Shown here piece by piece: positions 34,340 to 35,380 of a stretch of DNA of 64,000 nucleotides; position 1 is the stretch's first letter, and each line of letters starts with the position of its first letter. The position numbers and the translations under genes are program-made. The stretch lies in sequence record PV018827, one strand, 5' to 3'. Under the pieces are notes generated by a model. It was given only the letters and a program-made list of their open reading frames with translations. It was not told where the DNA came from and did no database searches. This stretch comes from Escherichia phage KM01.

Positions 34340-34340
<1 letters not shown>

Positions 34341-34639
34341 TATTCTATTCCACGCTCTTTCAGAGCTTCTAACAATCCGTTGTGATTGGCAGCACATTCT
34401 GTGTACTGGTCCTGATACCACTCCAACGTAGTGGCTAGTGCTTTTCCTTGAGCACTCTCTAAAAGAGGTAGGTCAACCCTACATTCAGCTTTTAGGTTTG
34501 TTGGTAAGGGCATTGATTGCCTGCTGTTGTCGCTCATTGAACAAGCTGATAAACTAAAAGCTAGCAAAATCCCCGTACAACTCAATAGCTTTTTCTTTAT
34601 ATGCACACCTAGCTCCTTCCAGTGTATCATGAAAACCAA
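34340..34639 (-). CDS. Lipoprotein (o-spanin candidate)
   Basis: Signal peptide with lipobox LSAC followed by Pro-containing short mature region. Confidence 0.4.
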
Positions 34640-35012
34640 GCCAAATAACCTTATCCTCGAATCCTATTCGAGCAGTCCATTTGTTAACATCCTTCCTATA
34701 CCCGACACCTTTTATGCCTGTTATAGAATTCTTCTGAGCAGATGTATTCATCTGATTCTGCGCATTGGTTGCTTTTCTTAGGTTAGTCCAAGAGTTGTTA
34801 GATTTAATCTGATCTTTGTGGTCAATATCAGTATCAGGGATTTCCCCTGTTTTTAAATACCAAGCCACTCTGTGCGCTTTATGCGCTTTCCCATTAAACC
34901 TCACAATAATGTATCCAGCATCTATCAAACAACCAGCCTCTTTTCCAGCAAACCTAGAGTTCCATTGATTGCTCTTCTTTTCAGAGCTTCTCCACGTTAA
35001 CTTTCCTGACAC
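34554..35012 (-). CDS. HNH homing endonuclease with C-terminal AP2 DNA-binding domain
   Basis: HNH motif AHKAHRVAWYLKTGEIP...IDHKDQIKSNNSWTNLR and AP2-like GVGYRKDVNKWTARIGF...WLGFHDTLEGARCAYKE. Confidence 0.7.
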   Translation of the reverse strand: MSGKLTWRSSEKKSNQWNSRFAGKEAGCLIDAGYIIVRFNGKAHKAHRVAWYLKTGEIPDTDIDHKDQIKSNNSWTNLRKATNAQNQMNTSAQKNSITGIKGVGYRKDVNKWTARIGFEDKVIWLGFHDTLEGARCAYKEKAIELYGDFASF

Positions 35013-35035
35013 TTCATCATAGGATAAAAACTCTT

Positions 35036-35380
35036 CTATTCCTTCGATTTTAAAACCCTCTCAGCTTCTTTCTGTCTCTGGTTAAATAGAGAGACATACT
35101 CATCACTAGCGCAGACATTATAAAAAACTGGTTTAGTTTTCTCATAATGCATCTCTTTATAAACGGTTTCCGTGTTCTTCTTCCAGTTAGATAAACCGGT
35201 AAGAACTCTCTGAGCAACTTCATCAGCTGCTCTATTTCTTTCAATCTCTAACTCTTGTTGATGTTTCTCTTTATCCAGATTACTACTGTCTGTTTGGTAC
35301 TCGTTAAACTTCATACCACCAAAGAACACAAGAGCTGAGAAAACGATAAACCCTAAGTTATCACTTAATGTGTTTTGCAT
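35036..35380 (-). CDS. Type-II membrane protein (i-spanin candidate)
   Basis: ATG 35380 with GGAGA RBS; N-terminal TMD LGFIVFSALVFFGG then charged helical domain; ends with TAG. Confidence 0.3.
   Translation of the reverse strand: MQNTLSDNLGFIVFSALVFFGGMKFNEYQTDSSNLDKEKHQQELEIERNRAADEVAQRVLTGLSNWKKNTETVYKEMHYEKTKPVFYNVCASDEYVSLFNQRQKEAERVLKSKE

Follow-up and report, generated by a model that had tools for sequence, protein, structure and literature searches.

A likely HNH-AP2 homing cassette in the dual-coding overlap of the spanin genes of Escherichia phage KM01

The spanin genes of phage T5 overlap by 70 bp, while those of phages Shivani and phiR201 are separated by about 700 bp with a GIY-YIG-type gene (Kongari et al. 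2018, BMC Bioinformatics 19:326, PMC6139136). The differences between T5 and Shivani are confined to the C-terminus of the inner spanin (i-spanin) and the signal sequence of the outer spanin (o-spanin), and the new N-terminus of the o-spanin must still encode a lipoylation signal (PMC6139136). In Aeromonas phage Aeh1 the mobE gene splits nrdA (Crona et al. 2011, Nucleic Acids Res 39:1381, PMC3045599). The locus analysed here belongs to Escherichia phage KM01 (sequence record PV018827) and lies in a stretch of 64,000 nucleotides, referred to below as the window. It holds an i-spanin gene, an o-spanin gene and, separating them, a segment of 545 bp with an HNH-AP2 endonuclease gene. Comparison with relatives makes it likely that this segment is a free-standing homing cassette lodged in the dual-coding overlap of the two spanin genes, and that both genes were repaired in coding, without splicing. 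Since the cassette brings replacement ends for both spanin genes, both should still work.

Position of the cassette and the empty site of relatives

The window comes from a phiEco32-like Kuravirus (Gordonclarkvirinae), and the region is 98-99% identical to the phiEco32-type kuraviruses. Nearly all kuraviruses cover just 78% of a 2.5-kb query, because approx. 545 bp are absent from them. Pairwise BLAST and multiple alignment against phiEco32 and other empty-site relatives placed the inserted cassette at 34548..35092 on the minus strand, with the boundary placement being ambiguous by 1-2 nt. The left edge follows ...GATGAGTATGT(C) at 35093 and the right edge precedes (C)AGCTTGTTCAA at 34547; in both kinds of alignment the sequence on either side of the insert is phiEco32-type (97-98% identical). 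The original prediction had lodged the HNH gene between two neighbouring genes. This has to be revised, since the alignment puts the insertion inside both coding sequences: in the i-spanin gene after codon 96-97, 20 codons short of the end, and in the o-spanin gene between MSMS and AC, directly before the lipobox cysteine.

Relics of both ancestral ends are found at the edges of the insert. The ancestral o-spanin start is present at 35093..35145 (minus strand; ATG 35145, MRKLNQFFIMSALVMSMS) in the +1 frame inside the i-spanin gene. This stump is severed from the lipobox Cys by the insertion and reads on as far as 35050, where it meets a stop. The ancestral i-spanin tail, SLFNERQQQAINALTNKPKS followed by a stop, can be read at 34485..34547 (minus strand) in an alternative frame of the o-spanin 5' region and is identical to that of phiEco32. 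The cassette itself contains a replacement i-spanin tail, the HNH-AP2 gene and a new lipoprotein signal peptide, and nearly all of its space is coding. The ancestral overlap of 116 nt, the cutting of both frames and the substitutes for both lost ends go beyond what had been predicted.

An HNH gene at the spanin site was found in 8 of the 98 related phage records, which correspond to six distinct phages (E20-1, EK010, SU7, PAS59, Bas86 and Bas87), as well as in one of ten metagenome loci and in none of five IMG/VR loci. All remaining relatives possess an intact, highly conserved empty site, so that about 90% of the relatives are without the HNH gene. The comparison of synteny with relatives lacking the gene, which had been suggested as a check, thus gave the opposite of a gene always present with no intact target site. 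The selfish insertion into a lysis-accessory locus that had been proposed is supported by these data, as the relatives annotate an i-spanin and an o-spanin, most of them with an empty site.

In the empty-site genomes the i-spanin has 115-116 aa and the o-spanin is an 86-aa lipoprotein, which starts 116 nt before the i-spanin stop in the +1 frame. In each empty-site relative examined this frame reads M[RK][KR]L[NS]QFF..M..SAC followed by S[MT]SDNSRQ. The Center for Phage Technology annotation of phage Paul includes the 86-aa o-spanin and places its LipoP SpII site between residues 19 and 20. phiEco32 and ECBP2 have been listed as having two-component spanins, with the i-spanins assigned to the JH2/FelixO1 family and the o-spanins to a family of their own (Kongari et al. 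2018, PMC6139136). Thus the gene arrangement is overlapped by 116 nt in the empty-site relatives and separated by the HNH cassette in the window.

The cassettes form three lineages. Lineage A comprises the window, E20-1, EK010 and the metagenome contig L026, which aligns colinearly with 3.3 kb of the window (94.6% identity); copies of this lineage show a mutual difference of about 4-5%. Lineage B, found in SU7 and Bas87, is about 66% identical to lineage A across the cassette, and lineage C is represented by the metagenome contig L013 (ERZ22233142 NODE_35). The site and the length of 545 bp are common to E20-1, EK010, SU7 and Bas87, the length being 546 bp in L013; in SU7 and Bas87 the right-hand junction differs by a few bases. 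Degenerate cassettes with a decayed HNH gene and the patches kept were sought in IMG/VR and in the metagenomes, but the search returned just empty sites and a single intact copy, which belongs to lineage A.

The annotation of the o-spanin varies among the records. In most of the phiEco32-like records examined it is called as 57 aa from MPLPTNLK, without signal peptide or lipobox (phiEco32, at 2743-2916; SU10, ES17, ECBP2, EK010, E20-1 and ShigP1), and the Bas88 call is shorter, 126 nt. In the SU7 GenBank record an o-spanin overlapping the HNH gene is annotated, with its own ribosome-binding site.

Replacement ends of the two spanin genes

The i-spanin gene (35036..35380, minus strand; ATG 35380, stop TAG 35038-35036) encodes an Rz-like protein of 114 aa. 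It had been predicted as a type-II membrane protein candidate resembling an inner spanin, and this was confirmed both by the open reading frame (ORF) and by a match to the PHROG family phrog_1152, 'Rz-like spanin' (E=6e-35, residues 3-113). Its single hydrophobic stretch, LGFIVFSALVFFGGM, is N-terminal (residues 9-23), as in a type II topology, and the homologue in phage Paul, with 98.8% DNA identity over the i-spanin body, has its transmembrane domain annotated at residues 8-23. Codons 1-96 are phiEco32-type, the gene being 98% identical to phiEco32 gp39 up to 35093, and the last 18 codons come from the cassette.

The first 57 nt of the cassette (35036..35092, minus strand) encode SLFNQRQKEAERVLKSKE plus a stop and repeat the ancestral tail in recoded form. 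The tail has 19 codons in each of lineages A, B and C, and the position of its stop is constant (VSLFNQRQKEAERVLKSKE, VGLFNERQQQAAEALKLKN and VKLFNTRQEEAKRVLKSKE). Between lineages A and B the proportion of synonymous sites that differ (pS) is 0.99 in the tail, and that of nonsynonymous sites (pN) is 0.27. In lineage B the tail agrees with the ancestral one of ECBP2 in 13 of 15 residues at a pS of about 1.0, that is, nearly all synonymous sites differ; the ancestral i-spanin tails of the two genera are pS=0.16 apart. By this comparison the cassette tail is a duplicate of the i-spanin end, thoroughly recoded and kept as protein.

The o-spanin gene (34340..34606, minus strand; GTG 34606, stop 34342-34340) encodes 88 aa and is preceded by the Shine-Dalgarno (SD) sequence AAGGAG at 34618-34613, 6 nt before the GTG. 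A lipobox lipoprotein had been predicted at 34340-34639. The ORF ending at 34340 and its lipobox were found as described, with KKKLLSCTGILLAFSLSAC and then SMSDNSRQSMPLPTNLKAEC contained in the ORF, but the start was not, since TTG 34639 is the first possible start only and GTG 34606 is the one kept in all relatives. From this GTG the protein reads MHIKKKLLSCTGILLAFSLSAC followed by SMSDN and passes the PROSITE PS51257-type lipobox rule; the signal peptide plus lipobox occupy 34606-34541, with the Cys codon at 34543-34541. The mature part begins with CSMSDNSRQSMPLPTNLKAEC and is 97-99% identical to Kuravirus o-spanins, and the protein matches the PHROG family phrog_2425 (E=1e-24).

The new signal peptide is the +1 frame of the AP2 C-terminus, lies within the last 53 nt of the HNH ORF (34606-34554) and joins the old mature o-spanin. 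Through this overlap of the HNH 3' end with the o-spanin start, about 18 of the 22 signal-peptide codons are inside the AP2 domain of the endonuclease. In lineages A, B and C the SD, the start, the Lys-rich n-region, the hydrophobic core and the lipobox are found in the same +1 frame with the start aligned (MHIKKKLLSCTGILLAFSLSAC, MLTKKKQKSCLVIFLASSLMAC and MHTKKKLLSCLGILLAANLTAC). At the codon that holds the new o-spanin start the HNH residue varies (Cys, Asn or Arg) and the overlapping triplet is kept as GTG, ATG or GTG. The AP2 C-terminal motif AYKEKAIELYGDFA yields a Lys-rich n-region and a hydrophobic core in its +1 frame with nearly whatever codons are used (34554-34606 of the window, and SU7). 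This suggests that the signal-like frame is largely a by-product of the AP2 amino-acid sequence, and that the evolutionary step was thereby an easy one.

The endonuclease, its mobility and the alternative explanations

The endonuclease ORF occupies 34554..35048 on the minus strand (164 codons if the start is AUC 35048; stop TAG 34556-34554). An HNH gene at 34554-35012 with its 3' end overlapping the lipoprotein start had been predicted, and the ORF, the overlap and the domain are as claimed: Pfam HNH_3 was matched with E=1.1e-15 and 57.4 bits, compared to a cut-off of 24.8. The Pfam AP2 match (E=5e-6, 27.2 bits) is under the gathering score of 33.3; the AP2 domain of WRI1 in the PDB was matched with E=2e-4, and close homologues have precomputed Pfam AP2 hits. 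The protein also matches the PHROG family phrog_99 (E=9e-62) and, as a weak sequence match, I-HmuI (PDB 1u3e, E=0.027). Residues H63, D80, H81, N89, N93, N102 and N105 (numbering from 35060) are invariant in the homologue alignment. Between lineages the HNH core has a pN/pS of about 0.3 with pS=0.70, which indicates purifying selection.

The HNH frame is open from 35060 and its first canonical start is GTG 35012, which would give 152 aa. No ATG, GTG or TTG is present upstream of the conserved N-terminal motif in the three lineages, and distant homologues have 12-17 more residues ahead of the shared motif LSYD(P)E.G (LSYDEVSG). The 42 codons that precede the first canonical start of lineage B have pS=0.89 and pN=0.245, like the core; this purifying selection suggests a non-AUG start. 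In lineage A AUC 35048 has an SD-like GAGAGGG 7-8 nt upstream, and at the aligned position lineage B has an AUU preceded by GGAGG with a 7-8-nt spacer. With moderate confidence, the HNH start may thus be placed at a weak non-AUG codon (AUC/AUU). Gene calls begin at GTG 35012 in the window and in E20-1, at an ATG in EK010, and at least 31 codons further in for SU7, Bas87 and L013. In lineage C (L013, around 1405-1425) a T7 run stands where lineage A has T5, so that the HNH body is in the i-spanin frame directly after the TAG and the N-terminal peptide is split over two frames; the peptide KIKGIEDF is still readable despite the frame shift. The T7 run could be an assembly error, a recent mutation or frameshift, or slippage.

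According to the homing explanation, the endonuclease would cut the empty allele around the GATGAGTATGT/CAGCTTGTTCAA junction in mixed infections, and the cassette would be copied in by double-strand-break repair, with flanking sequence dragged along. The insertion would turn the ancestral overlapped spanin arrangement into a separated one. The i-spanin would be repaired by the recoded tail with its own stop, and the o-spanin by the internal SD plus GTG, which would supply a new signal peptide in frame with the old lipobox and mature part. The recoded tail would also delete the target from the carriers, in which recoded sequence stands in place of the right half of the empty site.

Homing endonucleases usually prefer sequences that cannot drift. 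In eight empty-site genomes 85% of the columns are invariant in the 116-nt overlap, compared to 66% where only the i-spanin is encoded and 60% where only the o-spanin is; insertion into the most conserved part of the locus fits this target preference. The flanks of the lineage A cassettes were also compared. In the window and L026 they are Kuravirus-type on both sides. In E20-1 and EK010 the left flank is of the Suseptimavirus type, with 94-95% identity to SU7 against about 80% to Kuravirus, the cassette is of lineage A and the o-spanin is Kuravirus-type (97-98% identical to Kuravirus and 77% to SU7), with the switch of the left flank type lying at most 11 nt from the cassette edge. This mosaic is compatible with the outcome expected from double-strand-break repair with one-sided co-conversion.

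Another endonuclease gene was noticed near the spanins of SU10-type phages (SU10, at 2373-2786; CHD5UKE1, FH3 and 1-6af), where an HNH_3 + NUMOD4 gene of 137 aa precedes the i-spanin start by about 60 bp. Neither the window nor phiEco32 has this gene; its place would correspond to about 35,430 of the window, which is flanked by the gp40 homologue and the i-spanin gene. Since a second type of endonuclease is thus present beside the spanins in SU10-type phages, the spanin neighbourhood is a hot spot for homing endonuclease genes.

Several points weigh against a homing cassette with functional patches. The case for it is drawn entirely from comparative sequence evidence. The mosaic of E20-1 and EK010 could have arisen by ordinary recombination and not by endonuclease-driven repair. 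The HNH gene, having no canonical start before its N-terminal motif, could be poorly expressed or partly defunct. The signal-peptide frame has pS=0.2 and pN=0.25, with no synonymous excess; the ratio of nonsynonymous to synonymous change (dN/dS) is uninformative in this frame because of its overlap with the HNH frame. Moreover, 25-64% of random synonymous recodings of the AP2 C-terminus (lineages A and B) pass the lipoprotein rule, so that codon choice gives no independent proof of selection on the signal frame. Because of an Asn at position -4 the signal peptide of lineage C does not pass the strict PS51257 rule, although it has a classical L-T-A-C lipobox; the simulated recodings of lineage C all fail this rule as well.

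A bolder form of the homing explanation, which we offer tentatively and hold to be possible but rather doubtful, is that the cassette is a self-patching homing element adapted to a dual-coding region. It would have three components. Through the signal-like +1 frame of AYKEKAIELYGDFA, HNH-AP2 genes would be suited beforehand to invading sites directly ahead of a lipobox; the overprint would make an important host function depend on the 3' end of the endonuclease gene, guarding the element against the usual decay by deletion; and the conserved non-AUG start (AUC/AUU) would hold the endonuclease at a low level.

Among the competing explanations the one that survives best, though unlikely, is that the cassette is a fixed relic which no longer homes, its scatter being due to ordinary recombination among co-infecting kuraviruses and to occasional precise loss. 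The lack of a canonical start codon ahead of the conserved N-terminal motif would agree with this, as would the 1-nt length change of lineage C, which splits the HNH N-terminus over two frames, and the difference of about 4-5% among the lineage A copies, according to which no sampled transfer was very recent. However, the HNH core is under the constraint described above (pN/pS about 0.3, pS=0.70), the residues of the catalytic motif are invariant and the 42 N-terminal codons behave alike. In addition, one cassette lineage is found with both Kuravirus- and Suseptimavirus-type left flanks, with the breakpoint at most 11 nt from the edge. These findings argue against a fixed relic.

It is more improbable that the two membrane proteins are not spanins but have another envelope function, for example superinfection exclusion, in a locus unrelated to lysis. 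The position of the pair may be taken to favour this possibility. The holin (14358-14576, plus strand) and the endolysin (14605-15096, plus strand), located by BLAST of phiEco32 gp16 (91% identity) and gp17 (98%) against the window, belong to the late structural operon on the opposite strand; the statement that the endolysin is far away in the late operon was therefore correct, the distance being about 20 kb. The membrane pair itself lies among early/middle genes beside a phage sigma factor. Furthermore, a literature search found no experiment on phiEco32 gp38/gp39, and the o-spanin family phrog_2425 is labelled 'unknown function'. On the other side stands the match of the i-spanin to the PHROG Rz-like spanin family, as well as the defining anatomy, a type II membrane protein and a small lipoprotein in overlapping frame, by which the pair would qualify as a two-component spanin. 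phiEco32 and ECBP2 have been assigned to spanin families (Kongari et al. 2018, PMC6139136), and no other spanin candidate is annotated in the phiEco32 record 1-38,249.

The third possibility, which we regard as very improbable, is that the 545 bp are a self-splicing intron carrying the HNH gene, in which case splicing would restore the overlapped spanin mRNA and the tail and signal peptide would be incidental. The Bas87 GenBank record annotates the Rz-like spanin as a two-piece joined coding sequence across the HNH gene. Its span is 893 nt, which after subtraction of 545 leaves 348 nt, the length of an uninterrupted i-spanin gene; thus the cassette is treated as an intron there, and the stretch of the ancestral i-spanin tail (34485..34547 of the window) is joined as if it were a second exon. 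It is also true that both ancestral ends are intact in the window and that exact excision would regenerate both genes. However, no group I or group II match was obtained in Rfam 15 (E<=10 for the window; E<=5 for EK010, SU7 and L013). The HNH ORF leaves just about 44 nt of the cassette before it and 6 nt after it, and since coding sequence fills it there is no room for a ribozyme core. The three allowed boundaries would give G/A, T/T and C/C as the last bases of exon and intron, which does not satisfy the group I rule of U and G. The frame, length and stop position of the tail are kept, with a pN/pS of about 0.27 and saturated synonymous sites, and the continuity of SD, start and lipobox is kept in three lineages; such conservation of the tail and of the signal peptide would go unselected in a segment that is spliced out, and hence argues against an intron. 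Decay of the old signal-peptide frame in carriers was sought as a further test against splicing. The frame is intact in all genomes, but it is locked by the conserved i-spanin sequence EMHYEKTKPVFYNVCASDEYV, so that this test is uninformative.

Two further candidates were rejected, an intein, because the i-spanin frame stops at TAG 35038-35036 inside the cassette and the HNH gene is in a different frame, and a -1 frameshift from the i-spanin into HNH at U_UUA_AAA (35054-35048), because the heptamer is absent at the aligned position in lineages B and C and the product, a periplasmic HNH fusion, would be biologically senseless.

Surrounding genes and comparison with known systems

Every gene at 33,900-36,200 of the window is on the minus strand. 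An intrinsic terminator-like hairpin (AGCCACC-TCCG-GGTGGCT followed by a T run; 35399..35416, minus strand) is found directly upstream of the i-spanin start, and the phage Paul record has a terminator annotated at the equivalent site. The gene downstream of the o-spanin varies by lineage. The window and phiEco32 have a macro-domain (Appr-1-p processing) gene there, EK010 and E20-1 (1961-2299, compared with 34340-33900 of the window) a 112-aa ORF labelled 'NrdA-like', and SU7, Bas87 and ECBP2 a 74-aa ORF; in ES17 the next annotated gene encodes a 214-aa hypothetical protein. A metallophosphoesterase-like ORF of 167 aa occupies 36731-37234 (minus strand) of the window; SU10 has one too, and the phiEco32 record is without annotation there.

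A second HNH gene had been predicted at 30570-30971. The ORF exists (minus strand) and has 95% DNA identity to gp30 of phiEco32, an annotated HNH endonuclease, but the window ORF gave no Pfam HNH match at E<0.01. The HNH gene gp31 of phiEco32, beside gp30 (31450-31902 region), has no match in the window, making this another variable endonuclease site.

The locus would offer a natural example of a selfish endonuclease gene landing in a region that encodes two proteins and destroying neither, as well as a concrete route from the overlapped to the separated spanin arrangement. Its anatomy is unusually clear, with a recoded duplicate tail, an overprinted signal peptide and relics of both cut ends. 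There are consequences for annotation: o-spanins are called without a signal peptide in most phiEco32-like records, and at least one record takes the cassette for an intron. Cassette-bearing and cassette-free relatives (phiEco32, SU7, SU10 and the BASEL phages Bas86-Bas91) are available in culture collections.

A literature search found no description of the Kuravirus spanin insertion in the SU7 paper or in the BASEL paper. I-HmuI, an intron-encoded HNH enzyme (PDB 1u3e), shares the HNH catalytic motif and, in all likelihood, mobility by homing with the element described here, which however would be an intron-less cassette with no detectable ribozyme and no non-coding space. The likeness to mobE of Aeh1 is closer: there too a free-standing HNH gene breaks an important phage gene, and tails born of the insertion restore function with no splicing of RNA or protein. 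In Aeh1, however, one gene becomes two polypeptides that reassemble, whereas in the window two overlapping genes are parted and each would be completed separately. The replacements also differ, being a recoded duplicate and an overprint on the endonuclease ORF in the window, and the Aeh1 tails were tested biochemically while those of the window are known from sequence.

The closest parallel is provided by T5 and Shivani, in that a free-standing homing endonuclease gene lies between spanin genes which overlap in close relatives. These phages are Demerecviridae, whereas the window belongs to the Gordonclarkvirinae, and the Shivani endonuclease is of the T5orf172/MUG113 GIY-YIG type, in contrast to HNH_3+AP2. 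A check of the Shivani sequence showed that its endonuclease ORF shares 20 nt with the end of the i-spanin gene and 13 nt with the beginning of the o-spanin gene, compared to the 53 nt of o-spanin overlap in the window; hardly any of the Shivani signal peptide is thus encoded within the endonuclease gene. For T5 and Shivani it was left undecided in which direction the event went, while in the window the relics and the empty sites of about 90% of the relatives point to insertion. By sequence comparison, the spanin cassette of the window appears to be a second, independent instance of a known phenomenon, in another phage family and with another endonuclease family.

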